64,000 bases of DNA from Arenicellales bacterium (GTDB lineage Bacteria; Pseudomonadota; Gammaproteobacteria; Arenicellales; JAJDZL01). Below, one piece after another: positions 5,174-26,386 of the stretch. The notes beneath the pieces are model-generated. The model saw only the letters and a list, made by a program, of their open reading frames with translations. It ran no database searches and was not told where the DNA came from. The position numbers and the translations under genes are program-made. Positions within the stretch are counted from its first letter, which is position 1; every line of letters starts with the position of its first letter. The stretch is taken from positions 2,485,072 through 2,549,071 of the forward strand of contig OZ220493.1 of assembly GCA_965116205.1 (NCBI GenBank). The letters are read 5' to 3'.

Positions 5174-6736
5174 TCAGTCTGCTTCCACCTGCATCGCCAT
5201 TACGTTGCGATCTTCGCTGTTGAACAACACGGCTAGCAGATGAATCTTCTCCCGGCGATTGCGATACTTGTCTGCATAACGTCCTTGTCGAATTTGTTCG
5301 ATCGCCACCATGGCTTCCGTTTCTACATCTGCTTTCTGTACCATTTTAAACTCCAGTACGAACACCTGACTGTCATGCAACAGCACTAGGTCTGAACGCC
5401 CCAAACTTGATGATTCCTCACCAATGATGTCAAGGCCTATGGCACTGAAACAGGCATAGATCATACCAGCATAGTATCCCTCATAGTGATGCATACCGCT
5501 GTGGGTATACCACTGGTTCGGTATCGCTGAAAAAAATGAGTGCAATTCCATTTCGAACTCATCAAACTCGTTAGTAGCCAAAAATCGCGCCATGTTCCGG
5601 CCCCGTTTCAGGGCGTTAGGTAGGTCACTACTAACTGCATCCACCAACTCTCGGTTAAGACTCAGTCGCACTTCTTGGTTGGGATAATCTAACCGGTAAT
5701 AGATCCCGTCAGGTTGTTCTTTCTGATTCTTAATCGTCAGATAGCCACACTGGAACAGCAATGGATTGAGGCGAATCCTCTCAATTTCGAATCTAGATAG
5801 TTCGGCCCGGCCTATTTCCAAGTTCTCCAGATCTAGGGTGTTGAGTACACCTTCAACCATCATCCGGTAGAGAAAGCGAGGTGTGCCGGTTTCATACCAA
5901 TAGGGTTGGAACAGTCTTTTTTTGAACAGTAGTAGAATGTCGTAGGGGTTGTACACCTTGTCGGAACCCAACCAGTCGTAGCCGTTATACCACCGCTGCA
6001 TATCGCTCCGGTTTAATCCTTCGAGTTCCGGCGCGAACACCGTGTCAATGTCTTTATCCGTATAACCACAGATGGTGGCAAACTCGGGGTCCAAACTGAT
6101 GTCTTCAAGATTGTTCATGCCGGAGAACAGACTCACTTTGGAATACATGCTGATGCCGGTGACGAAAACGAATCGTACGAGATCATCACAGTCTTTAATT
6201 ATTCCGTACAAACCGTGTAGGCATTTTCGGTTGTTCTCTGCCTGTTGCGGGTTTTCAAGCAGGTCCAGTATCGGCTTGTCGTATTCGTCCACCAGTACCA
6301 CTACCTGTTCACCCGTAGCTTCATAAAGGTTGGATATCACTTCCTGTAGGCGTTCATCGCCATCGCCGGAGGATGAAGAAGGTTTGAGGCCGGCAAACTT
6401 TTCCTGTACGGTGAGTTGTCTATTGATGTGACGGTTCAGCTTGTGGGGCTTGTAGTAACTGCCGCCGAAACTGAGCCGTATCACTGGATGTTTTGTACTC
6501 CAGTCCCAGTGGTCGTGAATATACAATCCTTGAAACAGTTCTTCATTCCCTTCAAACAGTTCTTTCAGGGTGGAGAGCAGCAAAGATTTTCCGAACCGTC
6601 GGGGGCGTGACAGGAAATAGTATTTCCCGTCATCAAGCAGCTGTTTTATGTGACGTGTCTTGTCCACATAGTAACAGCCCTTGTTTCGAAGCTCTTTGAA
6701 GGAAGCGAGTCCGGTAGGCAGTTTGCGTTTGCTCAT
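5174..6736 (-). CDS. AAA-ATPase-like protein with C-terminal PD-(D/E)XK nuclease domain (DUF1703-type), copy A
   Basis: The N-terminus FKELRNKGCYYVDKT...YYFLSRPRRFGKSLLLSTLKELF matches the predicted AAA-ATPase family. The C-terminus GRSDLVLL...VFVLEFK has the D...ExK nuclease motif. It is about 60% identical by eye to ORF 36964-38547. Confidence 0.8.
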   Translation of the reverse strand: MSKRKLPTGLASFKELRNKGCYYVDKTRHIKQLLDDGKYYFLSRPRRFGKSLLLSTLKELFEGNEELFQGLYIHDHWDWSTKHPVIRLSFGGSYYKPHKLNRHINRQLTVQEKFAGLKPSSSSGDGDERLQEVISNLYEATGEQVVVLVDEYDKPILDLLENPQQAENNRKCLHGLYGIIKDCDDLVRFVFVTGISMYSKVSLFSGMNNLEDISLDPEFATICGYTDKDIDTVFAPELEGLNRSDMQRWYNGYDWLGSDKVYNPYDILLLFKKRLFQPYWYETGTPRFLYRMMVEGVLNTLDLENLEIGRAELSRFEIERIRLNPLLFQCGYLTIKNQKEQPDGIYYRLDYPNQEVRLSLNRELVDAVSSDLPNALKRGRNMARFLATNEFDEFEMELHSFFSAIPNQWYTHSGMHHYEGYYAGMIYACFSAIGLDIIGEESSSLGRSDLVLLHDSQVFVLEFKMVQKADVETEAMVAIEQIRQGRYADKYRNRREKIHLLAVLFNSEDRNVMAMQVEAD

Positions 6737-8127: not shown

Positions 8128-9258
8128 TCATTCGATTTGATCTGGTAATCTATAACTCGTACTTCTTCCTCTGCCGGAGTTTTGAATAAAGATGCCACGC
8201 TCTTTCAAGATCTGAATATCACGCAGTGCCGTGTCTTTTGAACATTTTACAAGTCTGGAGTATTTCGAAGTGTTCATATAACCGGTGAAATCATCCGCTA
8301 GCATTCGATTGATGATCAGACGTTGACGTTCATTGATGGAGTATCGATTGATTCTCTGCCAGAGTCGTGCTTTGAAGAGAACACCATCAAGAGTAATTTC
8401 TGCAGTGGATATCGCTCGGTTCAGACAGCTCAAATACCAGTTCAGCCAGTCAGTGATCTGCGGCGAAGCGCGTTGCTGTTTTTCCAGTTGACGGTAATAT
8501 TCCTGACGTTCGGATTCAATCTGTGTCGATAGACTGTAGAAACGGTCTGCCATACCGTCGGCATGCGCCAGCGCCATATCTCCGATGGCTCTGGCGATAC
8601 GGCCATTTCCATCTTCAAATGGATGAATACTCACAAACCACAGGTGAGCAATACCTGATTTAAGCACCGTATCTATGTCTTTGTCATCATTAAACCAATT
8701 TAGAAACAATTGCATTTCCTGTTCTAGCCGGTCTGCACTGGGCGCTTCGAAGTGAATATTTTCACGACCGATAGGGCCGGAGACAACTTGCATGGGTCCG
8801 GCATTCATAGTGCGCCATCCACCAACTGTAATTTGATGCATACCACTGCGTCCCGTCGGAAAGAGTGCCGCATGCCAGTTAAACAACCGTTCGGCGGTCA
8901 GAGACTCCGAAAAATTCTGTGTTATATCAAGCTCTATTTCAACAGCACCATCTACATCAGGACTAGCTGATAAATATTCTGTGCTTTGAATTCCTAATTT
9001 TTTCGAAATAGATGATCGAACTTCAGCAACATTGAGTTTTTCACCTTCAATAGCAAAAGATTTGACAATGTCGTTAGTAAGAGTGATAACACTGGCTTCG
9101 CGTCTGAACTCAAATCCAAGTCCCTCCATTCTTCCGAGCAGACGACCTTGGCGATGACGGACTTCAGCCAATTGAAAGGCAAGGACTTCGGCATCCCATG
9201 TAAAGGCTGGCCAATTTTCGTGTTGGTGTATCCACATGTTAATCACCGCAAAATACAA
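8128..9258 (-). CDS. Fic-family protein (AMPylase-type), class II with N-terminal inhibitory helix; likely true start at 9237
   Basis: Fic motif HPFEDGNGRIARA. The upstream SFAIEG matches the (S/T)xxxE(G/N) auto-inhibition motif. A C-terminal winged-helix-like region is present. Confidence 0.85.
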   Translation of the reverse strand: MYFAVINMWIHQHENWPAFTWDAEVLAFQLAEVRHRQGRLLGRMEGLGFEFRREASVITLTNDIVKSFAIEGEKLNVAEVRSSISKKLGIQSTEYLSASPDVDGAVEIELDITQNFSESLTAERLFNWHAALFPTGRSGMHQITVGGWRTMNAGPMQVVSGPIGRENIHFEAPSADRLEQEMQLFLNWFNDDKDIDTVLKSGIAHLWFVSIHPFEDGNGRIARAIGDMALAHADGMADRFYSLSTQIESERQEYYRQLEKQQRASPQITDWLNWYLSCLNRAISTAEITLDGVLFKARLWQRINRYSINERQRLIINRMLADDFTGYMNTSKYSRLVKCSKDTALRDIQILKERGIFIQNSGRGRSTSYRLPDQIE

Positions 9259-9920: not shown

Positions 9921-10544
9921 TTAGACTTTTCTATGTAACCACCAATTGGAATTTTCTTCTGCACCCGCACCTTTCCAAATAAACCCGTAATCTACCAGTT
10001 CTAAATCAGAAAAATACTCGTGCCAGAACATCCCAAAGTCACGTTTAAACAACTTATTTTTGTGGCCTCAGTAATCAATCGATTCGGGCCTGTCTGAGAA
10101 ATATTCGTTTGTTACGATGTATTTTGATGTGACACGATGCAATTCACGATACGTTTCAAGTAGATTACTTGGCTCAATATGGATCAACACGCCGCACGAT
10201 ATAGCTAGTTCAACAGATTGGTCTGCAAGTGGAATTTGGTTTCCCACTCCTTCAAATATATTTTTCTCTGGTAATATCCCACTTTTTCTGAGTGTATTTC
10301 TCGCTAAAGTGTTGGGTTCAACTGCGTAAAAAATAGCATCAAGTAGATGGCTGAGAGCATGTAGATTTATTCCCACGTTGGGCCCTATTTCTACACATGA
10401 CGTAGGGAGACAATGTTCCACAGCTCGTAGGATTCGAGACCATTTCCAAGTACTACCCAGGATTCGTGCTCTGGTTAGGTTGCAACGTTGACTATACTCG
10501 TTCCCAAATTCACCACGCCAAAAATCTTCTTGTTCGGTTTTCAT
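9921..10544 (-). pseudogene. Pseudaminic-acid-biosynthesis-associated methylase-like protein with an in-frame TGA
   Basis: The N-terminus TEQEDFWRGEFGNEY and SAM-MTase core resemble the Pse-locus methylase family (from memory). ORF 10068-10544 ends at TGA 10068-10070. The same frame then stays open for 48 more codons (GHKNKLFKRDF...DYGFIWKG...) to TAA 9921-9923, giving about 207 aa. Confidence 0.55.
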
Positions 10545-11156: not shown

Positions 11157-12483
11157 ATGAAAGTTACACATCTACAAAGTTCTACTCAAATCATCAACTT
11201 AGGCGACCTAAAAGTGCTGACTGATCCATGGTTGACTGATGGTGAGTACTACGGCAGTTGGTATCATTATCCGCCTTTTGGGGAAGAAAATATAGACAAT
11301 TTAAATTATGACTTTATTTACGTTTCCCACATTCATCCAGATCATTTGAGTGAGAAAACGTTTCGAAAACTTCCACTCAAGAAGCCCGTACTGATTCACA
11401 ATTATGACTCTAAGTTTGTAAAGCACAAACTGGAAATATTGGGTTACGAAGTTATTGAGTGTGATCATGGTAAGACTTTTGAATTCGAAAACGGTGGTTC
11501 AATAACTATCTATGCAGCTGACAATTGCAATCCAGAGCTTTGTGGGAAATTCTTGGGCTGCGCGAATCTAGAAGCTAAATTTGGAAGCACGCAGATTGAT
11601 ACGCTAGCTGTGTTTAAGCATCAAGGCGAAACCATCGTTAACGTTAACGATTGCCCTTTTGAGTTGGCGGAGAAAACTATTATAGCTAATATGCCTGAAA
11701 TTTTCTGGGGGGGGGGTGAACTTACTTCTAGTTGGCTATGCCGGTGCCGGACCGTACCCCCAGTGTTTTCACTTTGATAATATAGGTGATAAGCAGAAAG
11801 CAGCCGAGCAGAAAGAAAAACAATTTTTGCAGCAGGCAGCAAACTATATCAATCTGCTAAAACCGGATGCCTATGCTCCTTTTGCTGGCACCTATGTTCT
11901 GGGTTCTAAATTAGTAGGGTTGACCAAATTCAGAGGGGTGCCATTAATTTCAGATGCGCTGAACATGCTGAAAAATTATATATTGAATGATAGTAGCGGA
12001 GTTCTTCTCAACAAGCTGGATGTGTACGATGTGACCACTCAGCGACTATTCAAACATGAAGATGTGCCGAATCGCACCTATGACGAATTCTTACATGAGA
12101 TTGCAAACAAAAAACTTGAATATGAAGATGATGACTGGAATGATGCGGGTCTTTCGACACTCATGAATAAGTCTTACGAGCGATTCACCACTAAGGCCAG
12201 GGAGATTGGCTTTAAATCAACTACTTCATTGGTTGTGCAGAGTGATCGGGTTGCTTATCGGCTAAGTACGAGTGTCCCACCTGTTGAAGTTCCCGTCAAT
12301 AGTCGCTGTTCTGAGCCACTTCTGCGCATAACTGTTGATCATAATTTGCTTCATCGTTTACTCAGAGGGCCTAGATTTGCCCATTGGAATAATGCAGAAA
12401 TCGGTAGCCACCTACAGTACTTTCGCCAGCCAAATACCTATGAAAGAGGTCTGCATCATTGCATCTGTTTTTTGCATCAGTAA
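11157..12483 (+). pseudogene. MBL-fold metallo-hydrolase split by a poly-G frameshift (phase-variation candidate)
   Basis: ORF 11157-11777 carries HxHxDH (VSHIHPDH). ORF 11716-12483 continues in the +1-offset frame right after the G10 tract. Removing one G gives a single 441-aa ORF. Confidence 0.7.
11707..11716 (+). repeat. Homopolymeric G10 tract inside a coding sequence
   Basis: Counted directly: ttttct GGGGGGGGGG tgaac. Confidence 0.95.
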
Positions 12484-13490: not shown

Positions 13491-13732
13491 ATTTGTTCCG
13501 GAAGTTGAACCACTCGCTTGATCACTTTAATAATGATTTTCCACTTTTCTGATGGTATTGAGCATTTTTCGCTGATTAGTCGAGGTGTTTTTAGCAGTTG
13601 AAAAATAGTAATACAGAAAATTACGCTATCGTTGTTGGCGGGCGTGAAACACTGAGCTAATTCAGGATAAGTCTCATTGAACGAGTATTCCAGTTTGACA
13701 ACTGGCTCGCAGAAATCACTCTGCCCGGTCAA
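13487..13732 (-). CDS. Hypothetical small protein (81 aa), doubtful
   Basis: The ORF bridges the gap between the ATPase and GT25 genes, overlapping both ends (stop overlaps the GT25 ATG). I recognise no motifs and the paralogous region has no counterpart. Confidence 0.2.
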   Translation of the reverse strand: MTGQSDFCEPVVKLEYSFNETYPELAQCFTPANNDSVIFCITIFQLLKTPRLISEKCSIPSEKWKIIIKVIKRVVQLPEQI

Positions 13733-15038
13733 TGAGATACTGTCGAAACGACGGAATTGGGATGATCAGATTTGTGTCCACACGATGCACCATCCCAGCA
13801 AAAACCATCTCCTCGATGAAATCTATTGGCTTCATGTTTTCAAGCATTACACTCTCTGAATCAGGGGCAGTTTCCCATGCTCTACCTCTGAGAAAAGATA
13901 CAAGTTTTAATCTAGAACAACCCTCGGGCCCGATCAACCGTGCGACATCTGCGAGTAATTGTTTGCAGTCGCTGATGGGTGAGTGATCCAATCGGTCTCT
14001 GTAATACTGCAGGCGACACCTATCGCCAAACGAACGTACTGTGGCCTCATCCACGCTTGCTAGATCAAGGTGGTTGATTTTGAGCTGATTGGCTAACCCC
14101 ACCATGTAGTGAAACAGATGTTGCGGCCAACCATTGGACCATTCGTTTATCTTGTCAGGTAAGTCGGAATTGTCTCTGTCTTTGATTTGGTAGCCATCTA
14201 ACATGGCACGCACCGATTCAGCCGCCTCACCAGTTTCCAATACCCCTAACGTCTGTACATGACTTTGTCCATTACTAGTAGCAAAGCGCGAGATTCTCTC
14301 CGCCGCTAATTTTGATTTGGAGTAGGCGAGTCCATAAAGAACCGCCAAAATCGGTAAACCATGCGTACCGTTGTGCAATTTGAATAGCAACGCCACATCC
14401 TCTGGCTTGAAAATCTGCACCTCATCAATCATCACCACAATAGGCCGTAGTTTTGGTGGTTTAATTGAACTTCCTTTTATGACCCTCTTGAAGATAGCTG
14501 CAGTTTTTTTACTGTAGAGCTTTGCTAGATCTTGCAAAACTAATTGAGATGACTGCTCACTATCGGTCACTTTTCCTCCACCCTTGATAAACATGTTAAA
14601 ACCGAGGTCTCTTTCAACAGTGCGAACAGAGTCAAGTATTTCCGCACCATAGTCTGGTACGATGCAGTTAGCAATTGTGCGCGTGACTTCAGACTCATTG
14701 CGCAGTTCAACCGGCTCAATTCTCACCACCACGGGTCCGTTAGACTTTGCCATCCATCTGTTCTGCAAATGACTAAGTAATGCCGATTTGCCGGCGCCGG
14801 GTGCCCCTTGAATTAGCCAAGTCTCTTGGTTAGATAACACCATTCCAGGCTGCAAACCTGCGTTAGGGGTTTCATACTTGATTCTGTTTTCGATTTCGGC
14901 AACTGTGGATTCGATGCCAGTGATGATATCTTTGCGTCCAACGAAGAATATGGCCTTATTCTTGTCGCTCCTTTGTCCGAATTTTTCCAAGGAAATTGGG
15001 GGTTCGATATACATTTGCGATGTCTCAGTTTTCAGCAT
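13716..15038 (-). CDS. STAND/AAA_16-like NTPase with C-terminal winged-helix-like region, copy A
   Basis: FFVGRKD...(FVGRxxE-type lead-in), Walker A QGAPGAGKSALL, Walker B VVMIDEVQ, and a SNGWPQHL helical-arm-like motif. It is paralogous to ORF 43766-45058. Confidence 0.65.
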   Translation of the reverse strand: MLKTETSQMYIEPPISLEKFGQRSDKNKAIFFVGRKDIITGIESTVAEIENRIKYETPNAGLQPGMVLSNQETWLIQGAPGAGKSALLSHLQNRWMAKSNGPVVVRIEPVELRNESEVTRTIANCIVPDYGAEILDSVRTVERDLGFNMFIKGGGKVTDSEQSSQLVLQDLAKLYSKKTAAIFKRVIKGSSIKPPKLRPIVVMIDEVQIFKPEDVALLFKLHNGTHGLPILAVLYGLAYSKSKLAAERISRFATSNGQSHVQTLGVLETGEAAESVRAMLDGYQIKDRDNSDLPDKINEWSNGWPQHLFHYMVGLANQLKINHLDLASVDEATVRSFGDRCRLQYYRDRLDHSPISDCKQLLADVARLIGPEGCSRLKLVSFLRGRAWETAPDSESVMLENMKPIDFIEEMVFAGMVHRVDTNLIIPIPSFRQYLIDRAE

Positions 15039-15323: not shown

Positions 15324-16001
15324 ATGATAGTTACAATTCACCAGCCGGCATTTCTTCCTTGGCTAGGTTATTTTGACAAAATCCTTCACAGCGATACCTA
15401 TGTGTTCTTAGATTCAGTCCAATTTCGGAAGGGTGGCTATTCCAATCGAAATAGAATAAAGGGGGCTAACGGAGTGATATGGTTAACCATACCGGTCAAG
15501 CTAAAGGGTCACAAATCCAGCACCATCGGAGATATACCAATTGATTACTCACAGAAATGGAAAAGACAACATTTAAATTCTATCTTTTTCAACTATCGAA
15601 AGGCGAAGTTCTTCGATCTCCTGTTCCCAAAGTTAGAAACTCTCTATGCGGAAAAGCATGAGCTATTGTCAGAACTTGTCTATGCTCAATTGTTATTTTG
15701 GATGAGTGAGCTAGGCATTGAAACCGAAGTCGTTAAATCTAGTGATATTCCCACTCAGTGCAAGAAATCTGATTTGGTTTTGGAGTTGTGTATAAAACTT
15801 GGTGCACATCAATATCTTGCCAGTCCAAATAGTACAATTTACTTAGAGGAGACTGGTTTCCATGATCATTCGATTCGTATTGACTACCGAGGCTACGAAC
15901 ATCCAGTGTATCCACAACTTTTTGGTGAGTTTGTTCCAAATCTATCAATCGTTGATTATTGGATGAACGCGCACAAATCAATTTTCGTTCGAGAGGAATA
16001 A
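15324..16001 (+). CDS. WbqC-family protein, copy 1
   Basis: The N-terminus IHQPAFLPWLGYFDKI is typical of the WbqC-like family. 225 aa. Confidence 0.75.
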   Translation: MIVTIHQPAFLPWLGYFDKILHSDTYVFLDSVQFRKGGYSNRNRIKGANGVIWLTIPVKLKGHKSSTIGDIPIDYSQKWKRQHLNSIFFNYRKAKFFDLLFPKLETLYAEKHELLSELVYAQLLFWMSELGIETEVVKSSDIPTQCKKSDLVLELCIKLGAHQYLASPNSTIYLEETGFHDHSIRIDYRGYEHPVYPQLFGEFVPNLSIVDYWMNAHKSIFVREE

Positions 16002-16004
16002 TTG

Positions 16005-16676
16005 ATGCCCGAATTGAGCCAAAGTGACATCTGGAATAAAGTTTATAGCCACCACAAGCGACATGCAATTTGGCCTTGGACGGATCTCGTTAAACTCGTC
16101 ATGCGTCATGCATCTCCACCTTACCGGAAAGGTTTCAAAGTACTCGAATTAGGCTGTGGTGCCGGCGCTAATATTCCATTTTTTGCATCGCTGGGGGTGA
16201 GTTATTTTTCCGTAGAATCAAGTGAGGTCATTGTCTCCCAGTTGCATGAAACTTATCCACAATTCTGTGATTCTATAGTCGCCGGAGATTTCACAAGAGA
16301 GTTGCCTGATGAGGAGTTTGATTTGATTGTAGATCGAGCAGCGCTCATTCATAATAAATCTGCAACCATTGAACTGTGTATGCAGCATTGCCATGAGAAA
16401 CTGAAATCAGGTGGTAAATTTATCGGTGTTGATTGGTATTCAACCCGATGCAGTTCCTTTGCACACACTGAGGCGGAAGATGAATGGACGCGAGTCAATT
16501 TTGCAAGTGGTCCTTTTGTTCCCGTATACCGAGTTCATTTCACCAACAAGACACGTTTACTGGAGATATTATCAAATTTTGAATTAGAGGTATTGGAACA
16601 TAAAACGATTGAATCGGAGTCGGACAAAGAAAACGCGACCCTTGCAAGTTGGAACTTCGTAGCAACAAAATCATGA
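16005..16676 (+). CDS. Class I SAM-dependent methyltransferase, copy 1
   Basis: VLELGCGAGAN motif I. It starts 3 nt after the wbqC-1 stop. Its 5' ~260 nt are about 94% identical to copy 2. Confidence 0.8.
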   Translation: MPELSQSDIWNKVYSHHKRHAIWPWTDLVKLVMRHASPPYRKGFKVLELGCGAGANIPFFASLGVSYFSVESSEVIVSQLHETYPQFCDSIVAGDFTRELPDEEFDLIVDRAALIHNKSATIELCMQHCHEKLKSGGKFIGVDWYSTRCSSFAHTEAEDEWTRVNFASGPFVPVYRVHFTNKTRLLEILSNFELEVLEHKTIESESDKENATLASWNFVATKS

Positions 16677-16784: not shown

Positions 16785-17462
16785 ATGGTTGTCTCAGTCC
16801 ATCAGCCGGCATTTCTACCATGGCTAGGTTACTTCAACAAAATTATTCGTAGCGATAAATTTGTCTTTCTTGATACGGTTCAATTTGAGAAGGGGAGTTT
16901 TGTTAACCGAAATCGGATCAAAGGTAACAACGGAGTGATATGGTTGACGGTGCCTATTAAAATAAAAGGACACATGACCAATACCATCAAGAATATTTTG
17001 ATTGATAATACTCAGAAGTGGCAAAGAAGGCATCTGAATTCAATTTTTTTCAACTATCGAAAAGCGAAGTATTTTGATCGTTTGTATCCGCAGTTAGAAC
17101 AGCTGTATCAGGAACGGTATGATTTTCTGTCTGACCTCACCTATTCACAGTTGAAATTTTGGCTGGATGAACTGAACATCAATACCAAAGTCATTAAGTC
17201 GGAAGATTTGTCCACTCAACGTAGGAAATCTGATCTTATCTTGGAATTATGTCTACGGCTGGGTGCCGATCAATATCTAGCAGGTTCGCTCAGTAAGAAT
17301 TATCTTGATGAATCAGCGTTTCGTCAGCAGTCAATTGATATCGAATACCAAAACTACCAAGGTCCGAAATATCCACAACTTTTTAGTGGATTCATTCCTA
17401 ATCTATCCATTGTTGATTATTGGATGAACACTCACAATACCATTTTCATTCGCGAGGAATAG
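16785..17462 (+). CDS. WbqC-family protein, copy 2
   Basis: VHQPAFLPWLGYFNKI N-terminus. It has the same length as copy 1 (225 aa) and is about 70% identical. Confidence 0.75.
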   Translation: MVVSVHQPAFLPWLGYFNKIIRSDKFVFLDTVQFEKGSFVNRNRIKGNNGVIWLTVPIKIKGHMTNTIKNILIDNTQKWQRRHLNSIFFNYRKAKYFDRLYPQLEQLYQERYDFLSDLTYSQLKFWLDELNINTKVIKSEDLSTQRRKSDLILELCLRLGADQYLAGSLSKNYLDESAFRQQSIDIEYQNYQGPKYPQLFSGFIPNLSIVDYWMNTHNTIFIREE

Positions 17463-17464
17463 TT

Positions 17465-18145
17465 ATGCCCGAATTGAGCCAAAGTGACATCTGGAATAAA
17501 ATTTATACCCACCACAAGCGCCATGCAATTTGGCCTTGGACGGATCTCGTTCAACTAGTTATGCGTTATGCATCTCCACCCTACCAGAAGGGTTTCAAAG
17601 TACTTGAATTAGGCTGTGGTGCCGGCGCTAATATTCCCTTTTTTGCATCGCTAGAGGGGGGGGGGGTGAGTTATTTTTCCGTAGAATCAAGTGAGGTCAT
17701 TGTCTCCCAGTTGCATGAAACTTATCCGCAGTTTCGCGATTCAATAGAGGTTGGTGACTTCACAACAGAACTGCCTAATGAACAATTTGATCTGATTGTC
17801 GATCGAGGGGCAATGATTTGTAACAAATCCAAAGCTATTGCACGATGTATTCAGCGTTGTTATGCACAACTCAATTCTGGTGGAAAATTTATTGGTGTCG
17901 ACTGGTACTCTACCCAATGCAGTTCATTTGCGCAAGCTCAGGTGGAGGATGAATGGACCCGAGTGAATTTTGTAAATGGCCCCTTTGTACCTGTGCATAG
18001 AATACATTTTAGCGATAAAGAGCATCTGCTGGATTTGTTTTCCAATTTTGAAATCGAAGCACTTGAGCATAAAACCATTAACAATGAATATAACGAAAAT
18101 CACCCTACCTTGGCCAGCTGGAATTTTGTGGCGGTAAAAGTATGA
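17465..18145 (+). CDS. Class I SAM-dependent methyltransferase, copy 2 (contains an in-frame G11 tract)
   Basis: MPELSQSDIWNK start is homologous to copy 1, so the 17420 start in the ORF track is probably an upstream extension. VLELGCGAGAN motif. It has an extra EGG relative to copy 1, encoded by the poly-G tract. Confidence 0.8.
   Translation: MPELSQSDIWNKIYTHHKRHAIWPWTDLVQLVMRYASPPYQKGFKVLELGCGAGANIPFFASLEGGGVSYFSVESSEVIVSQLHETYPQFRDSIEVGDFTTELPNEQFDLIVDRGAMICNKSKAIARCIQRCYAQLNSGGKFIGVDWYSTQCSSFAQAQVEDEWTRVNFVNGPFVPVHRIHFSDKEHLLDLFSNFEIEALEHKTINNEYNENHPTLASWNFVAVKV
17656..17666 (+). repeat. Homopolymeric G11 tract inside a coding sequence (in frame)
   Basis: Counted directly: ctaga GGGGGGGGGGG tgag. 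The homologous site in copy 1 (16193-16197) is G5. Confidence 0.95.
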
Positions 18146-18820
18146 AAAATGTTCTTGTCGTTGCGGCGCATCCCGATGATGAAATTCTAGGTTGTGGTGG
18201 GGCCATGGCCCGCCATGTTGAGCACGGTGATGATGTTCATGTTCTATTTGTTGCGGATGGCGTGAGTTCAAGAGGCGGTGATTTCAGCATTGATGAACAT
18301 CGCCAAATGAGTATTCGCGCCAATGAAGAAGTTGGTACCCATTCACCGCGATTTTTGGATTTCCCAGATAATCAGCTGGATAGCGTTCCTTTGCTTCAAA
18401 TTGTTCAGGGGATAGAGCCCCATATTGAAGATATTTCTCCAAGAATCATCTATACACATTTCTCCGGTGATTTAAATATCGATCACTCCATTGTGAATCG
18501 CGCGGTGATGACAGCCTGCCGACCACAACCGAATTTTCCCGTTCAAGAAATTTACGCATTTGAAGTTCCGTCGAGCACGGGCTGGCTTCCAAATGGGGGG
18601 GGGGGTGAACTCCTTTGAGCCTAATGTCTTTGTTAACATTACAAAAACGTTTTCCAAAAAGTTGGCTGCACTTGAGTTTTATGGAAATGAAATGCGACCA
18701 TTTCCACACAGCAGGAGTTTTGAAGGAGTTGAACATTTAGCCTGTTTTCGCGGTACATCTGTAGGATTGGAGATGGCTGAAGGATTTGTTGCGGAACGCA
18801 TTCTTCAGGTTGACCGTTGA
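18142..18820 (+). pseudogene. PIG-L/LmbE-family deacetylase split by a poly-G frameshift (phase-variation candidate)
   Basis: VVAAHPDDEILGCGG N-terminal motif in ORF 18142-18618. ORF 18560-18820 (FEPNVFVNIT...PHSRS...) continues in the +1-offset frame after the G11 tract. Removing one G gives a 225-aa ORF. Confidence 0.75.
18595..18605 (+). repeat. Homopolymeric G11 tract inside a coding sequence
   Basis: Counted directly: ccaaat GGGGGGGGGGG tgaac. Confidence 0.95.
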
Positions 18821-18835
18821 GAACTGAAAACCTGA

Positions 18836-19438
18836 ATGGAACAACTCAGCAAATGTCATGGAGATGGTCAAAAGATACTGTTTCTAGGCTTTGATCGAAA
18901 TAAAACGAGTTTGATTGATTATTTAATTTCAAAAGGACATGAAGTTTGGCATACCGAAAAAACCATCTCTGCCGTGACTGATTTCCAATTTGTCATCAGT
19001 TTTGGCTATATGCACATGATCACACGTGAAGTGCTTCGAGATCACAAGTGCCTGTTCATCAACTTACATATTTCCTATCTGCCGTTTAACCGAGGATCTA
19101 ATCCAAATTTTTGGGCTTTCTACGATCAAACGCCCAGTGGGGTAACTATTCATAAGATTGATGCTGGAACTGACACCGGTGACATTATTTGTCAAAAGCA
19201 GGTAAAGTTTGATCAAGGGGAAACAACTTTTGTTCAGACCTACAACAGACTGATTATTGAGACCGAAGAATTATTCAAAAATTGGTGGAACTTGATTGCT
19301 ACCCATCAATTTACCGCGACTCCTCAAGATGTAAAAGCGGGTACCTATCATAGAGATTCAGATCTGCCGAAAGAGATATCCACCTGGGACGTAGAGATTA
19401 CCTCAGAAATTAATCGCCTCAGAGAGTTGTTGAGTTAA
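18836..19438 (+). CDS. Sugar N-formyltransferase-like protein (formyl-transferase N-terminal domain only)
   Basis: NLHISYLPFNRGSNPNFWA matches the HxSxLPxxRG formyltransferase motif. 200 aa. Confidence 0.7.
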   Translation: MEQLSKCHGDGQKILFLGFDRNKTSLIDYLISKGHEVWHTEKTISAVTDFQFVISFGYMHMITREVLRDHKCLFINLHISYLPFNRGSNPNFWAFYDQTPSGVTIHKIDAGTDTGDIICQKQVKFDQGETTFVQTYNRLIIETEELFKNWWNLIATHQFTATPQDVKAGTYHRDSDLPKEISTWDVEITSEINRLRELLS

Positions 19439-19522: not shown

Positions 19523-20515
19523 ATGTTACAGAAATCGTCAATCCTGTTAACCGGTGGCACCGGTTCTTTTGGTTCTCGTTTTGTTCCATTAGCACTGGAA
19601 AAATACGATCCTTCCCGTCTGGTCATTTATTCTCGCGATGAAATGAAACAATGGGAGATGTCGAAGGCATTCCAGAATGATCCGCGGGTTAGATTTTTTC
19701 TGGGCGATGTGCGTGATAAAGAACGCCTCTACAGAGCGATGGATGGAGTTGACTATGTAGTTCATGCTGCTGCACTCAAAATCATACCCATCGCTGAGTA
19801 CAATCCGTTTGAATGCATCAAGACCAATATCAATGGCGCGATGAATGTCATTGATGCCTGTCTGGACGTTGGAGTCAAAAGATGCATCGCTCTTTCTACT
19901 GACAAGGCGTCCAGTCCGGTGAATCTCTATGGGGCGACCAAGTTGGCGGCGGAAAAATTGTTTGTCGCCGCCAATGCTTACTCTGGAAACTCCCGTTGTC
20001 GCTTTGCTGTGGTTCGGTACGGAAACGTGATGGGATCGAGGGGGTCGGTGATTCCTTATTTTCTATCATTGGATAAGCAAGGCGAATTACCGATTACGGA
20101 TGTTCGTATGACTCGCTTTATGATCAAACTCGAGCAGGCAGTAGACTTGGTTTTTCATGCTTTTTCTGAGATGGTAGGGGGCGAGATTTACATTCGTAAG
20201 GTGCCATCCATGAATATTATGGACATCGCTAAAGCCTGCGTTCCAAATTCGAAACACAAAATTATTGGTATTCGCCCCGGTGAAAAGTTAAGCGAACAGC
20301 TCGTCGGTGAAGATGAATCAGCCTTTACCTATGAATACGATGAGTATTTCAAGATCATGCCGGCAATCCAAACCTTCTCAGAGCAACCCAAACCCGATGG
20401 TCAATTGGTTGCCAGCGGGTTCAAATACGCGTCAGATTCAAACGATTCATGGATGGAAATTCAAGAACTATCGGAATGGATCGACAACAACCGCGACATC
20501 ATTGGTTACTTCTAA
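19523..20515 (+). CDS. pseB: UDP-N-acetylglucosamine 4,6-dehydratase (inverting), PseB/FlaA1-type
   Basis: LLTGGTGSFG Rossmann motif and YGATKLAAEK (YxxxK). 330 aa, immediately followed by a PseC-type aminotransferase. Confidence 0.85.
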   Translation: MLQKSSILLTGGTGSFGSRFVPLALEKYDPSRLVIYSRDEMKQWEMSKAFQNDPRVRFFLGDVRDKERLYRAMDGVDYVVHAAALKIIPIAEYNPFECIKTNINGAMNVIDACLDVGVKRCIALSTDKASSPVNLYGATKLAAEKLFVAANAYSGNSRCRFAVVRYGNVMGSRGSVIPYFLSLDKQGELPITDVRMTRFMIKLEQAVDLVFHAFSEMVGGEIYIRKVPSMNIMDIAKACVPNSKHKIIGIRPGEKLSEQLVGEDESAFTYEYDEYFKIMPAIQTFSEQPKPDGQLVASGFKYASDSNDSWMEIQELSEWIDNNRDIIGYF

Positions 20516-21670
20516 TTGATTCAATATGCCCGCCAAAACATCACGAAAGGTGATGTTGAAGCAGTCGTTGCGGCACTGAGTTCGAATTTTTTGACACAGG
20601 GTCCGCTGGTGCCTGAATTTGAACAGGCGGTCGCACAACAGGTAGCGGCGAAATATGCCGTTGCAACTAACTCGGCAACCTCTGCGCTACACACAGCCTG
20701 TTTAGCTCTAGGACTGTGTTCTGATGATTTACTTTGGACCGTTCCCAATTCGTTTGTGGCATCGGCAAATTGTGGATTACTTTGTGGGGCTGAAGTAGAT
20801 TTTGTTGATATTGATTCAACAAGTTACTGTATGGACGTAGATGCATTAGCCAGCAAATTAAAAACAGCTGAACTGGCCGGACGACTACCCAAGGTCTTAG
20901 TCGTTGTACATTACGCCGGGCATAGTGCAGAGATGCTGTCGATTAGAAAACTCGCCAATCAATATGGAATCCATGTCATTGAAGATGCTGCCCACGCTAT
21001 AGGTGGTAGTTATCGGGGAAAGTTGATTGGCTCCTGCGAATTTAGCGATGTTACTGTTTTCAGTTTTCATCCGGTCAAAATCATGACGACAGCCGAAGGC
21101 GGAATGGCTGTTACCAACGATGCGCAAATTGCTTCACGTATGGCGAGACTCCGAACTCATGGAGTGACCCGAAATCAGGCTGAAATGCAGAACAAAAATC
21201 CTCATCCATGGGAATTTGAGCAACTCGAACTTGGCTTGAATTATCGAATGACTGAGTTGCAGGCGGCGTTGGGAATATCGCAATTGGGGCGGCTTGATGC
21301 TTTTGTATCTCGTCGTCGTCAACTGGCTCATCAATATGACGCACAACTTCGTAAATTACCTTTAATTCTACCTAATCTACAATCATCGAATGAGTGTGCT
21401 TGGCATCTGTATCCAGTGTTGATCGACTCAAGGCAGACGACATTGACACGGGAACAGGTCTATTATTCACTGCTGGACAGAGGAATCAAATCAAACGTAC
21501 ATTTCATTCCCATCCATACGCAACCATACTTTAAGGAAATGGGCTTCGCAGTCGGCGACTTTCCAGTGTCCGAGTGGTTTTATGCCCATGAACTCAGTTT
21601 ACCGATGTATTATGATTTGACTGATTCAGAGCAACAGAGCGTGATAGATGCGATGTTTGCAGTGTTTTGA
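20516..21670 (+). CDS. pseC: UDP-4-amino-4,6-dideoxy-N-acetyl-beta-L-altrosamine transaminase-like (DegT/PseC family); TTG start
   Basis: The N-terminus IQYARQNITKGDVEAVVAALSSNFLTQGPLVPEFE is PseC-like. SFHPVKIMTTAEGG carries the PLP-lysine context. Confidence 0.8.
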   Translation: MIQYARQNITKGDVEAVVAALSSNFLTQGPLVPEFEQAVAQQVAAKYAVATNSATSALHTACLALGLCSDDLLWTVPNSFVASANCGLLCGAEVDFVDIDSTSYCMDVDALASKLKTAELAGRLPKVLVVVHYAGHSAEMLSIRKLANQYGIHVIEDAAHAIGGSYRGKLIGSCEFSDVTVFSFHPVKIMTTAEGGMAVTNDAQIASRMARLRTHGVTRNQAEMQNKNPHPWEFEQLELGLNYRMTELQAALGISQLGRLDAFVSRRRQLAHQYDAQLRKLPLILPNLQSSNECAWHLYPVLIDSRQTTLTREQVYYSLLDRGIKSNVHFIPIHTQPYFKEMGFAVGDFPVSEWFYAHELSLPMYYDLTDSEQQSVIDAMFAVF

Positions 21671-21740: not shown

Positions 21741-23237
21741 CTATGATGAGAAGGTCGTACTGATTCTGTTTTGAATCAAATCAACAATGGTATTGGCGAC
21801 TCGTTTGGCATTTTTTTCTAGATCGTGTTTGCCACCGGACCTCCGTCTTTTCAGTGGTTGAATACGGCCGCCATGGGCACGGGCAAAAAGTTGACGGACT
21901 GCTTGTTGCAGATGCTCTGGATCAATCTTGAAATCACAGATACGGTCATAAGTGAGGTCATCTTGATACTTGAATATTCCCGGTAAATTCAGATACCAAG
22001 GCGATCCAAAAATCAGTGCTTTTTTGCCATTGCAGATGGCTTCCCAAGCTGCAGTTCCGGTAATCGCCGCAACAAACTGAGCGTGTTCAATCAATTGGTG
22101 GGTATTGGCATAAGAGGGTACCCAACGAATGTTGCTCAGGTGACTGAGTCGATGAAAAAATTGCGCACCACGCATACACCCACCTTGCTTTGGATTTTCC
22201 TTGAGATAAATCAGACAGTCATCAGGCAGCAATTGACACAGTTGCTCCAATGCCAGAATCTGGTCGGCATAAATGCCTCCAAGTGTGGAGGTTGTCATTT
22301 CAGGTTGGAGCTGTAGCGGAAAATAGACGAATTTACAGTGGAAATCAATCTCAGTCGTTTCGAATTGTAGCAGTGTTTCAAAGTAATCCAGATGACGGAT
22401 ATCAAAATACCTGGAGAATGGATACCGCCATTTAGGCAACAAAGATGCAATACGACTCATTCGCCGCAGAAAATTGGCCAAGTGAAAAGGTTGTAATAGG
22501 GTTGCTGGCCGTACCGTAAGTAAATGTACCAATAGCATCAGTATCCCCAGTCCATTGAGTTTTCCCAATTTGCCTTGCTGCTGCTCCGTACCTTTCATGT
22601 AATCCCATTCTAGTGTTTCGGTCAATTCGGCGAACCGATGATCATCTTGCAGAGTGGGAGTTGGTGACCATTTTCCATAATCATTGATATCACGAAGGGA
22701 AAAAAAGTACTCGGGGTATATCGTTGGTGAGAGCATTAAGGTATTGATTTGTCGAGACTTCGCGATCTGGTAGGCCAAGGTGTCTACGAACAAGTGCGGA
22801 AGCTCGAAAAACAGTATCAAATCAATTCTTTGCTGTGTCAAATAATGAGCAATAAGATCGGTGATGATGCGATAGTAGTGCTTCTCATCCATAATGGAAT
22901 TCAGTTCATGATGCCGCCAGACAAAACTAGCAGATTTCCGTTCTAAGTGGTCTAGAGCCATGAGTGTCGCTGCATTTGATTGTGCGCTCAACAGCAGTTC
23001 TAATCCATGACCAGAAAACTGATCATTTTGCAAGATTTCTGCGATAGCTCCTGATCTTTTTTCCATTCTTACCAAGTTGGTTAAACCGATATCCTGTTGG
23101 TTGCCGACCACGATCAATCTTGATGTAGAGGGTAACAGACAGTTCAGCTGACGGACTATGGCTTGCATGAGAATGTCAGCCGCGCCAAAGACTAAGATAG
23201 TTTGTGGAGTCAAGTTGAGTTGGGTAGTTTGCGTCAT
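21741..23237 (-). CDS. Capsule-polysaccharide-biosynthesis-family protein (KpsS/KpsC/LpsZ-like), paralogue 1
   Basis: 498 aa. YFPLQLQPEMTTS motif and C-terminal ...VAAITGTAAWEAICNGKKALIFG. Family assignment is from memory and unverified. Confidence 0.55.
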   Translation of the reverse strand: MTQTTQLNLTPQTILVFGAADILMQAIVRQLNCLLPSTSRLIVVGNQQDIGLTNLVRMEKRSGAIAEILQNDQFSGHGLELLLSAQSNAATLMALDHLERKSASFVWRHHELNSIMDEKHYYRIITDLIAHYLTQQRIDLILFFELPHLFVDTLAYQIAKSRQINTLMLSPTIYPEYFFSLRDINDYGKWSPTPTLQDDHRFAELTETLEWDYMKGTEQQQGKLGKLNGLGILMLLVHLLTVRPATLLQPFHLANFLRRMSRIASLLPKWRYPFSRYFDIRHLDYFETLLQFETTEIDFHCKFVYFPLQLQPEMTTSTLGGIYADQILALEQLCQLLPDDCLIYLKENPKQGGCMRGAQFFHRLSHLSNIRWVPSYANTHQLIEHAQFVAAITGTAAWEAICNGKKALIFGSPWYLNLPGIFKYQDDLTYDRICDFKIDPEHLQQAVRQLFARAHGGRIQPLKRRRSGGKHDLEKNAKRVANTIVDLIQNRISTTFSS

Positions 23238-23281
23238 CTACTTGGAGATGAGGAATGCCTGGTTACGAGAATTTTGCCCAT

Positions 23282-24766
23282 TTAGAGACTCGTCTGCGAG
23301 GAGGCCATTCGCTCTGATGAGCGAAAGCTGGTATCCGCGCGGTTGAAAATGAGCTTGATTATTTGGTTGGCAACGATTTCTGCGTTTTTTTCAATGCCAA
23401 TGGCATGAGTCTGCGCTGATGATTGCATGTCATCTGGGTGAAGATTACCATCATGTGATTTCGAGAATAGAATATTAATTTGATCATTAACTTCTAGATT
23501 AGTGAAATGAGATTCAACAACTTCTTCATAAGAAAGTTCATTTTTAAAGATGTGGACTCCAGGAAATTTCCAGTACCAAGGTTTGCCAAAAACGAGTACT
23601 TTTTTATCCAAATTGAGCGCATTCCACCCCAGTTGACTGTTCACAGTGGCAAATATTTCACAATTCTCCAGGAGTTGTTGAGTGTTCATGCAACGAGGTA
23701 TATGGACTACGTTTGAGATTCGTCTGAGCCGATGGAAAAACATCGGAGTCAGGTAGTCTGAGTGTTCGACATCGCTATCCTTAACCATGATCTTGTAATG
23801 GCTTGGAATGAATCTCGACAGTTGTTCAATGGCGAGTAATTGGTCCGAAAATTGATTGAGCAATATTTCCGAGTAGAGTTCTCTTAACGGCTGTAAAGGA
23901 AAATAAACGTACTTGTGCTGTAGCTGAGATGTGATATCACAATCTTGAGTGATAAATTCAAAATAAGCATGTTTTTTTTGAAAGAAGAACTTGGCAAATG
24001 GATCACGCCAGTCGTTTCTGTTGGGTGGTGCGTCATGTAAGTGTCTTGCCCGGCTCAGGACAAAGACCGGGTCAAACAACTTGATTGATCGAATCTCCAA
24101 GAGAAACAACACGACTTTGATGGCATTTGCGAGCGTTAATCGGCTGGTTGATTTCTGCTGAGTCATATCCGCCGGTATGGTGTTGCCTTTCAAATGAGAA
24201 ATTTCTTGTTTTGTTACCTCGACAAAGGTTTCATAGTCACCGAAGTCATGCAATGACCGCAATGAAAAAAAACGTTTTGGAAAAATAGCGGGAGTCAGTA
24301 TCAGGGTTTCTATTCGTAGTGCTTTCGCCACTTGGTATAACAGAAGGTCGACTAATGCAGTGGGCCAATTGAAGAATACGATCAAGTCAATTTTCTGTTC
24401 CACCAAGTGATTCTGCAGTAGATTCCATAGCATCTGATTAGCATGTAGATTGTCGTGGAACAGGAGAATATTCCCATCTTTGCCGCGCTCATATTCTTGA
24501 ACCAAGGCGTTTGCCAATTGACTGCCCGGGTCGGTGTTGAAAGTGAGCGGGTAATTGCAGTGGGAAGGTTCCACAACACTTGAATAATGAGAATAGTTGT
24601 GATGCGGATAAGTGGAATCATAGATTTTTTCAATCGCCAAGTCACTTTGATCAAATACCAGCACTTGGGCAGAATGATGCAGTGATTCCTTTTTCAACTG
24701 CCGCAATATTTCCGCATTGTCGTCAGATTTCCCGACGATGAGAATGCGCGGAGCTGTTTTTTTCAT
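23282..24766 (-). CDS. Capsule-polysaccharide-biosynthesis-family protein, paralogue 2 (most divergent); start probably at 24766
   Basis: YFPLQPLRELYSE motif. Alignment with paralogues 1 and 3 starts at MKKTAPRILIVGK. The ORF track extends it to 24874. Confidence 0.55.
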   Translation of the reverse strand: MKKTAPRILIVGKSDDNAEILRQLKKESLHHSAQVLVFDQSDLAIEKIYDSTYPHHNYSHYSSVVEPSHCNYPLTFNTDPGSQLANALVQEYERGKDGNILLFHDNLHANQMLWNLLQNHLVEQKIDLIVFFNWPTALVDLLLYQVAKALRIETLILTPAIFPKRFFSLRSLHDFGDYETFVEVTKQEISHLKGNTIPADMTQQKSTSRLTLANAIKVVLFLLEIRSIKLFDPVFVLSRARHLHDAPPNRNDWRDPFAKFFFQKKHAYFEFITQDCDITSQLQHKYVYFPLQPLRELYSEILLNQFSDQLLAIEQLSRFIPSHYKIMVKDSDVEHSDYLTPMFFHRLRRISNVVHIPRCMNTQQLLENCEIFATVNSQLGWNALNLDKKVLVFGKPWYWKFPGVHIFKNELSYEEVVESHFTNLEVNDQINILFSKSHDGNLHPDDMQSSAQTHAIGIEKNAEIVANQIIKLIFNRADTSFRSSERMASSQTSL

Positions 24767-24874
24767 ATTGAGAAAATACCAATCTTTTCCAAGAGTTGAA
24801 TCAGCAGATAAAACAACGAGTGACTTGACTAATCGAGCTATCCAATTGGCAAGGTTAACGAGAAAATAGCTCAA

Positions 24875-26386
24875 TTACCCTTCATTGTTCAAAAATGTCG
24901 GCTCAACTTTATGTTCAATCAGGTCCAGTATGGTTCGCGCGACGGTTTTTGCATTGGCGACTAGTGCAATTGCATGGTCTTGATCTTTCTGTTTTGCAAT
25001 ATACAACGCGCCTTCGTGAGTGCGAGACAACAATAGTCCAGCCTTTTGTTCTAACTCGGCATGGTTGATCTCAGAAGAAATAATTTCGTCATAAGTCATG
25101 CCATAACGAAATGGAATGGCACCGTCTAAATCTCGATACCAAGGATTGCCAAAGAAAAGAACCGCCTTGCCTTTGCAAATCGCTTCCCAACCGACTGTTC
25201 CGGTAACGGTGGCTACAAATTGTGAGTGGTCGAGCAATTCCTGCGTGTTGGCATAGGAAGGGACCAATCGCACCTGACGAATGCGAAACAGTCGGTTGAA
25301 GAACTGTGCACCCCGCATCGCGCCGGTTTGTTTGGGATTTTCCTTTACGAAAATTAAGCAGTCAGCGGGAATTATCTCCGCGAGTTTCTCAATGGCCAGC
25401 AACTGATCATAATAGTCTCCACCGATTGTCGATGTAGATAATTCCGGTTGTAGATGTAAAGGAAAATAAACGAACTTACAGTGCCAATCAATTTCAGACT
25501 TTTCAAAATCCAGTAGTGTTTCGAAATATGCGAGATGACGGATATGGAAAAATTTCGCAAATGGGTAACGCCACTTGGGAAGGGTGCTTGCTATGTGCCG
25601 CATTCGATTGATGCAATTAACCAAATATCGAGGATTAAATAGTTTGACCGGCGTAGAAGTTAACAGGTGACAGAACAGCGCGATGATGCCGCGTCCATCC
25701 AAAGAACCCAGTTGGCCCTGATACTGCTTAACACTAGACATATATCCCCACTCAATGGTTAGATTTTTGTCAATGGTGAGTGGCGCCACTGGTGGCTGAT
25801 CCGAATGTTCTCGTAGGCGGCCAAATTGGTCAAGGTCTCGAAGTGAAAAAAAGCGATTGATAAAAGGTGAAAAAGTGAGGATGATGGTTTGAATGCGCTT
25901 GGCTTTGGCAATGTGATAGGCGATGGTATCGTAGTAAAGGTGAGGAATATCGAAGAACAATACGACATTGATATGGTTACGTACCATATGGTCAGCCATG
26001 ATATCCACTACCAAATGGTAGTATTGCACCGCATCGTAGAACGTGTTGAGGTTGTTGTGTGACCACGCAAAGTTTTCCGTTCTTCGCTGTAGATGATCCA
26101 GACCCATCAGCACGGCTTCACTCAGCGCTTTGCTGTTCACCCAGTGTAACTCTCCCCCGGAGTACATTGAATCTTTTATGTTCAGACTTTTTTTTGTTTT
26201 TCGACGTTTAATCCGAGTTAACCCACTCATCACAATGTCAGCACCTCGTTTTCCAGCAACGTCAAATTGCGCTGATTTGGGCAGTTGATTTCTTAACTGC
26301 GAAACGATGGTTTGTAGCGTTTCATTGCTAGTACTGAATGCCAGAATGCACAATGCTCCGTCAGTCAACTCTGTTGTCGATTGCAT
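24875..26386 (-). CDS. Capsule-polysaccharide-biosynthesis-family protein, paralogue 3
   Basis: 503 aa with YFPLHLQPELSTS motif. It is collinear with paralogue 1 along its whole length. Confidence 0.55.
   Translation of the reverse strand: MQSTTELTDGALCILAFSTSNETLQTIVSQLRNQLPKSAQFDVAGKRGADIVMSGLTRIKRRKTKKSLNIKDSMYSGGELHWVNSKALSEAVLMGLDHLQRRTENFAWSHNNLNTFYDAVQYYHLVVDIMADHMVRNHINVVLFFDIPHLYYDTIAYHIAKAKRIQTIILTFSPFINRFFSLRDLDQFGRLREHSDQPPVAPLTIDKNLTIEWGYMSSVKQYQGQLGSLDGRGIIALFCHLLTSTPVKLFNPRYLVNCINRMRHIASTLPKWRYPFAKFFHIRHLAYFETLLDFEKSEIDWHCKFVYFPLHLQPELSTSTIGGDYYDQLLAIEKLAEIIPADCLIFVKENPKQTGAMRGAQFFNRLFRIRQVRLVPSYANTQELLDHSQFVATVTGTVGWEAICKGKAVLFFGNPWYRDLDGAIPFRYGMTYDEIISSEINHAELEQKAGLLLSRTHEGALYIAKQKDQDHAIALVANAKTVARTILDLIEHKVEPTFLNNEG

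Follow-up and report, generated by a model that had tools for sequence, protein, structure and literature searches.

The 64-kb window (the whole stretch of DNA analysed here) contains an island of glycan genes with a GC content of 39-44%, compared with 47-52% in its flanks, where housekeeping genes lie (ftsK, lolA, rarA, serS, pyruvate dehydrogenase, uvrA and gyrA). The tract under study is a run of 11 G inside a PIG-L/LmbE deacetylase gene of this island, and the features needed to follow it are these:

9921-10544, minus strand: pseudaminic acid (Pse)-associated methylase gene.
11707-11716, plus strand: G10 tract that splits the gene of a 441-aa MBL-fold protein (11157-12483); the gene is ON at G9 or G12.
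16193-16197, plus strand: G5 in methyltransferase copy 1 (16005-16676), at the site that corresponds to the tract of its paralogue, copy 2.
16785-17462, plus strand: WbqC-like gene copy 2, first of a WbqC / methyltransferase / PIG-L / formyltransferase cassette.
17656-17666, plus strand: G11 tract inside the gene of methyltransferase copy 2 (17465-18145), ON (in frame) in the assembly.
18142-18618, plus strand: PIG-L/LmbE ORF as assembled, 158 aa, in the OFF phase; Pfam PF02585 matches over residues 5-126.
18595-18605, plus strand: G11 homopolymer within the PIG-L deacetylase gene, the proposed slippage switch.
18606-18820, plus strand: C-terminal third of PIG-L in the G10/G13 frame, with FEPN, PFPHSRS and AEGF; stop at 18818-18820.
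18613-18618, plus strand: CTT TGA, with which the G11 OFF frame ends (last sense codon, then stop).
18836-19438, plus strand: formyltransferase-family gene, directly 3' of PIG-L.
19523-20515, plus strand: pseB (TIGR03589 score 501.8, cutoff 407.75).
20516-21670, plus strand: pseC (TIGR03588 score 512.6, cutoff 423.5).

The products of pseB and pseC catalyse the first two steps in the synthesis of pseudaminic acid, and both scored above their NCBIfam equivalog cutoffs. None of pseF, pseG, pseH or pseI was recognised among the island ORFs scanned with Pfam; syntenic relatives have CTP_transf_3 and NeuB genes nearby, and the remaining Pse pathway genes of this genome may lie outside the window. 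Two tandem WbqC-methyltransferase pairs (15324-16676 and 16785-18145) share about 74% nucleotide identity, and a G tract is present in the second copy only. The gene order of the cassette to which this second copy belongs is repeated in four related loci, designated L001, L002, L003 and L093. Around the wider PIG-L subfamily, counted within ±6 kb of the gene (±10 kb for L001 and L002), pseC was found in 41 of 83 loci, pseB in 29 of 83 and WbqC in 22 of 83.

The island also holds three Capsule_synth-like genes, a GT25 glycosyltransferase gene and the Pse-associated methylase gene. The Capsule_synth-like genes (21741-26386, minus strand) encode three paralogues of about 500 aa with weak matches to Capsule_synth (PF05159) and adjoin pseC; the trio is conserved in L002 and L093, and these proteins may be what transfers the sugar. 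The window has neither flagellin nor maf genes. Within or beside the low-GC island are also a gene for a STAND-like ATPase (13716-15038) and a Fic/DUF4172 gene (8128-9258), and paralogous AAA-ATPase_like plus PDDEXK_9 proteins are encoded at 5174-6736 (minus strand) and 36964-38547 (plus strand).

The start codon of the PIG-L gene (ATG at 18142) overlaps the stop codon of the upstream methyltransferase gene in an ATGA, and the reading frame that it opens terminates at the TGA of 18616-18618. Around the tract the letters read TGG CTT CCA AAT, then GGGGGGGGGGG, then tga act cct ttg ag, and exactly 11 G were counted at 18595-18605, the position and length given in the first-pass annotation. The run covers codons 152-155 of a 225-codon gene. 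When its length was changed in silico, G10 gave a product of 225 aa, in agreement with the earlier proposal that G10 restores an ORF of that size, and G13 gave 226 aa; G8, G9, G11 and G12 gave products of 154-158 aa. By this in silico logic, a change of one unit toggles the gene between a full-length and a truncated product. The earlier description of the two halves of the gene was also borne out: the AHPDDE motif ascribed to the N-terminal part is present there as AAHPDDE, together with the Pfam PIG-L match, and the sequence in the other frame, taken to be the C-terminal half, carries FEPN, PFPHSRS and AEGF, motifs that hardly vary among 26 homologues. The tract lies inside a reading frame and is longer than the threshold that PhasomeIt applies to G runs (at least 7).

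Runs of this length depart sharply from the rest of the window. The G runs of the 64 kb have lengths of 5 (20 runs) and 6 (1 run), and then 10, 11 and 11; there are no runs of 7-9, and none of 100 dinucleotide-preserving shuffles produced a G10. Among the Gly codons GGG is used least (12.5%), and GGG-GGG occurs at none of the 71 Gly-Gly pairs in 37 other ORFs. All three long tracts are poly-G on the coding strand, lie inside ORFs and fall within a span of 7 kb, and their assembled states are mixed (OFF, ON and OFF along the window). No further simple-sequence repeats of the contingency type were found in the window. The G11 at 17656-17666, a third tract that the first-pass annotation had not recorded, amounts to a 9-nt insertion in methyltransferase copy 2, since the paralogous copy 1 has only G5 at this site.

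At 11707 the same correction is needed as in PIG-L, as had been claimed: loss of one G, to G9, joins two ORFs into a 441-aa protein, and full-length homologues of 439 aa are abundant. Compared with 12 homologues, this tract adds two Gly residues to a variable loop, and it sits just before an invariant LLVGY...PQCF motif. Homologues of the gene are labelled 'UDP-MurNAc hydroxylase' by JGI, and the enzyme may hydroxylate an N-acetyl to an N-glycolyl group on the same sugar. The earlier observation that the context GGGGTGAAC is identical at 11707 was reproduced, with the same TGAACT following the G10 there. We rejected a common origin of the 11707 and 18595 tracts from this shared TGAACT context: the Val-Asn/Asp that follows the tract in the 11707 gene is ancestral, conserved sequence, and the two codons after the PIG-L tract are hypervariable among orthologues. 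A TGA lies directly 3' of all three tracts (11717-11719, 17667-17669 and 18606-18608), and therefore one of the two OFF frames stops at once in each case. This TGA is not shared by L001, which has GCAC at the position, or by L002, which has TGTC.

The reconstructed G10 protein scored 87.2 bits against Pfam PIG-L (PF02585; cutoff 28.2) and aligns across residues 2-217 to TT1542, a solved PIG-L protein. H10, D12, D13, E14, D114 and H115, of the AHPDDE and DH motifs, are invariant in 26 homologues, and H189, R191, S192, E213 and F215, all beyond the tract, are nearly invariant in the same set. An AlphaFold model of the G10 protein reached a pLDDT of 92.4 and a pTM of 0.91, and its C-terminal third is predicted to form strands at 162-165 and 212-220 and helices at 170-178 and 193-206. 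Residues 150-152 are the sole segment of the model below a pLDDT of 50, and the tract-encoded Gly152-154 are predicted to share this low-confidence loop, between the strands of 136-140 and 162-165. In Foldseek, the full-length G10 model matched 6p2t, 2ixd and 1uan (BshB, BC1534 and TT1542) with TM scores of 0.75-0.81. The G10 reconstruction is thus predicted to form a complete single-domain PIG-L fold, of which the 158-aa product lacks residues 159-225. Because the fold match spans the whole length, the shorter product is missing two strands and three helices of one domain, and on the strength of the sequence and the model it is probably inactive. The place of the tract is itself a tolerant one, as all three tracts put Gly insertions into flexible or variable loops, and mutable runs in tolerant loops are what is expected of evolved switches.

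The protein shares PF02585, the catalytic motifs and the fold with the zinc de-N-acetylases of the PIG-L/LmbE family (BshB, MshB, BC1534, TT1542 and diacetylchitobiose deacetylase). It differs from them in being only about 20% identical to any solved member and in falling far under the equivalog cutoffs for BshB and MshB. It also differs in its gene context, which points to a predicted nucleotide-sugar or nonulosonic-acid substrate.

We compared the tract site among related genomes, with the following result (amino-acid identities are to the window protein):

Window: G11, OFF, needs G10.
L001 and L004 (one genome, an Arenicellales MAG), 82% identity: G11, OFF, needs G10.
L002 and L095, 69% identity: G9, ON, 224 aa.
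L003, 62% identity: GGGGGTGGG (G5TG3), an interrupted tract.
L093, 65% identity: GGT GGT, no tract.
79 distant GTDB orthologues, 46-56% identity: no tract in the gene.

The tract is therefore held at one codon position in four related genomes, in differing lengths and frames. Both ON and OFF states occur among the homologues and the lengths differ, as comparisons at the level of species. The one close pair, L002 and L095, is 94.5% identical in nucleotides over the locus and has the identical length of G9 in both. A neighbour-joining tree (computed without bootstrap) placed the tract bearers in one clade, with L003 and L093 outside it. An alignment-based GTDB scan returned 80 loci, among which L004 alone, from the same genome as L001, was tract-bearing, and a GTDB scan with the single PIG-L protein gave no match. 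Exact-protein look-ups of the 158-aa product, the formyltransferase and SerS in other assemblies returned no contigs on record. The window's SerS shares 79-83% identity with that of several genomes, among them the Arenicellales MAG (79%), and 71% with that of an 'Acidiferrobacterales' MAG. In JGI metagenomes, a search for PIG-L orthologues by DNA pattern gave 0 hits under strict settings and 9 under relaxed ones, none of which was a PIG-L homologue.

Several further differences were seen around the orthologues. L095 and L002 are co-occurring strains from one sample (ERZ25070917), and pseB encodes 290 aa in L095 and 330 aa in L002. Intragenic G/C runs of 9-13 are present in neighbours of PIG-L orthologues at L068:8181-8190, L059:11917-11925, L042:2628-4661 and L058:8332-8341, for example a G10 within an ORF of 755 aa and a G9 within one of 413 aa. 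Their hosts are unrelated bacteria (Desulfobulbaceae, Pseudovibrio, Leptolyngbya and Halorhodospira), and G/C tracts may be common in the glycan loci around PIG-L orthologues.

An out-of-frame gene might simply be a plain pseudogene, in which a one-base insertion in an existing G run has permanently killed the deacetylase and left it to decay. Two genomes (the window and L001) have PIG-L out of frame, as this explanation would have it. Across the 70 post-tract codons, the window differs from L001 with a pN of 0.119 and a pS of 0.632, which gives an omega of about 0.09; upstream of the tract, omega is about 0.04. Synonymous differences between the two are near saturation (pS 0.63-0.71), and the ON frame of the 70 post-tract codons holds no stop in either the window or L001. 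PIG-L is thus not an old pseudogene, because a dN/dS of about 0.09 has been kept downstream of the tract at near-saturated synonymous sites, and such constraint in two out-of-frame lineages, with no stop in the ON frame, counts against decay in general. Moreover, the sole lesion of PIG-L is the tract length itself, and the tract-bearing clade includes in-frame members (L002 and L095). Even two independent permanent inactivations at one run would still mark it as a mutational hot spot.

Other genes of the locus give this explanation some support. Two Capsule_synth-like genes of L095 are split by single-base indels that are not in homopolymers, and the Pse-associated methylase gene in the window has an in-frame TGA at 10068-10070, where homologues have the Arg of a Y-R-G-H. 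The methylase scored 111.2 bits against TIGR03587 (cutoff 112.05), and the 48 codons past its TGA are still conserved; the TGA may have arisen recently as a nonsense mutation, may be a sequencing error or may be read through. There is thus some irreversible decay at the locus, since the methylase carries a plain nonsense codon. For PIG-L itself, we consider the plain pseudogene very unlikely, because the tract site is kept in relatives and the sequence downstream of it is under purifying selection. These same comparative data, the kept tract and the downstream selection, favour a variable tract, which was one of three readings set out in the first-pass annotation, beside an assembly artefact and a plain pseudogene. 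Either the two OFF genomes were both sampled during a passing OFF phase, or the tract length has been miscalled in one of them or in both.

The second of these options is the more serious rival: the tract would be real, but the consensus would be in error about its length, with a true majority length of G10 and an intact gene in most cells. Homopolymers of 10 or more stay problematic at the consensus level (PMC9262707), and the contigs of the relatives carry metaMDBG-style names (ctgN_87x_l), which suggest long-read metagenome assemblies. The OFF state could thus have been miscalled, given that long homopolymers are unreliable in a consensus and that the assembly looks long-read-only. In addition, the three out-of-frame tracts (G10 and G11 in the window and G11 in L001) all need a change of exactly -1, which could hint at a systematic overcall of +1, and the protein database holds no full-length PIG-L at ≥90% identity for comparison. 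However, if every tract had been overcalled by +1, the methyltransferase G11 and the G9 of L002 and L095, all in frame as called, would in truth be out of frame. The 26 indel blocks that separate L002 from L095 are mostly not differences in homopolymer length, with none in the G tract and at most two 3-nt blocks that abut an A run, so there is no general homopolymer noise in these two assemblies. We regard a length error as a possibility to be taken seriously, though not the likely one, and it touches the present state of the gene only: a G10 would still be a hypermutable site.

The way in which the OFF frame ends raised one more alternative, namely recoding, in which the G11 allele would yield the full-length enzyme with the DNA unchanged, either by a +1 slip at CUU-UGA or by RNA polymerase slippage. 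The final codons of the OFF frame resemble the programmed +1 site of prfB (RF2), with which they share CUU UGA and an upstream G-rich, Shine-Dalgarno-like element. In prfB, a Shine-Dalgarno-like stimulator, which the G run resembles, lies 3 nt from the CUU. A +1 slip at CTT TGA G (18613-18619) would enter the ON frame and change only four loop residues, and the OFF frame of the 11707 tract likewise ends in CTT TGA (11772-11777), an ending with an empirical chance of about 1% per site. The remaining features of the prfB type, the 3-nt spacing and conservation in orthologues, are absent from PIG-L. The G run ends 7 nt before the CUU, and the OFF frame of L001, the nearest orthologue, ends in ATT TGA. 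The CTT TGA has another explanation, since the ON frame has conserved Phe-Glu codons (TTT GAG) here, from which the TGA arises incidentally. A shift of this kind in the 11707 gene would put out-of-frame sequence in place of the invariant LLVGYAGAGPYPQCF motif, and no significant RNA structure was found downstream of the PIG-L tract (z = -0.80 in the window).

As L001 has no such motif, the CTT TGA endings at 18613-18618 and 11772-11777 are probably coincidental, and judged from the sequence the likeness of the PIG-L CUU UGA to prfB is itself probably a coincidence. We hold recoding to be most improbable. The same low credence applies to its particular form of a leaky G11 allele, in which a +1 slip at CUU-UGA, four codons past the tract, would yield a full-length deacetylase with an altered loop. 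If the allele were leaky after all, the tract would set three expression levels (full, leaky and none) rather than two.

We conclude that the G11 is probably a simple-sequence contingency tract inside the gene, by which a single modification of a pseudaminic-acid glycan would be turned on or off. This reading as a slippage switch is supported by the logic of the frames, the conservation of the tract, the purifying selection downstream of it and its predicted position in a flexible loop. In the mechanism that we propose, slipped-strand mispairing during replication would gain or lose a G, and the G count would toggle the PIG-L de-N-acetylase between its full-length form (G10 or G13) and truncated forms of 154-158 aa. 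PIG-L enzymes take off N-acetyl groups. With PIG-L ON, the N-acetyl group would presumably be removed, which would allow another acyl group, such as formyl, to take its place; N-acyl exchange on a pseudaminic-acid-type sugar is the likely reaction because deacetylation by PIG-L is coupled here with adjacent genes for a formyltransferase, methyltransferases and WbqC. If the three tracts vary independently, a single clone could give rise to up to eight glycan phasotypes. We infer from the locus that the population switches, and likewise the enzyme's substrate, the altered glycan and the selective agent, which may be phage or host recognition.

The closest precedent is Campylobacter jejuni, in which genes with homopolymeric G tracts, such as Cj1295, switch pseudaminic-acid modifications on flagellin (PMC3068675). 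In the C. jejuni phasome as defined with PhasomeIt (G ≥7), the tracts are mostly intragenic and have G on the coding strand, with lengths of 9-10 the commonest (PMC6321876). The locus described here is like the flagellin glycosylation, capsule and LOS loci of C. jejuni in its intragenic, coding-strand poly-G tracts of 9-11 and in their ON/OFF control by frameshift. It is also like them in the clustering of tract-bearing genes in a pseudaminic-acid locus, where sugar-modifying enzymes are hit and the core pathway is spared, and in a tract that related species keep, in states that vary (PMC3068675, PMC6321876). Unlike C. jejuni, a host-adapted epsilonproteobacterial pathogen, the host here is an uncultured marine gammaproteobacterium related to Arenicellales, and its switch is a predicted one. 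The switched gene in the window differs too, being a PIG-L/LmbE deacetylase, and in place of nearby flagellin or maf genes the window has three Capsule_synth-like genes. In the literature, we found no report that links LmbE/PIG-L with pseudaminic or nonulosonic acid, and none of the PIG-L/LmbE family as phase-variable. Poly-G contingency loci in pseudaminic-acid modification genes are thus already known, and it is the host lineage and the enzyme family that are new.

Most work on simple-sequence phase variation has dealt with pathogens adapted to a host, such as Campylobacter, Neisseria, Haemophilus and Helicobacter. In metagenome-assembled genomes, tracts like the present ones will be annotated as frameshifted pseudogenes. 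They should be flagged rather than "corrected", because they are read as pseudogenes and are also the least reliable sites of a long-read consensus. Another outcome is an uncharacterised subfamily of PIG-L, often found in linkage with pseB and pseC. Here, an uncultured marine gammaproteobacterium carries a Campylobacter-like trio of putative poly-G switches in a pseudaminic-acid locus, and one of these tracts has stayed at its codon position through saturation of synonymous sites. This suggests that selection for stochastic switching of surface glycans, presumably in answer to recognition by phage or host, extends to lineages that are environmental or symbiotic.
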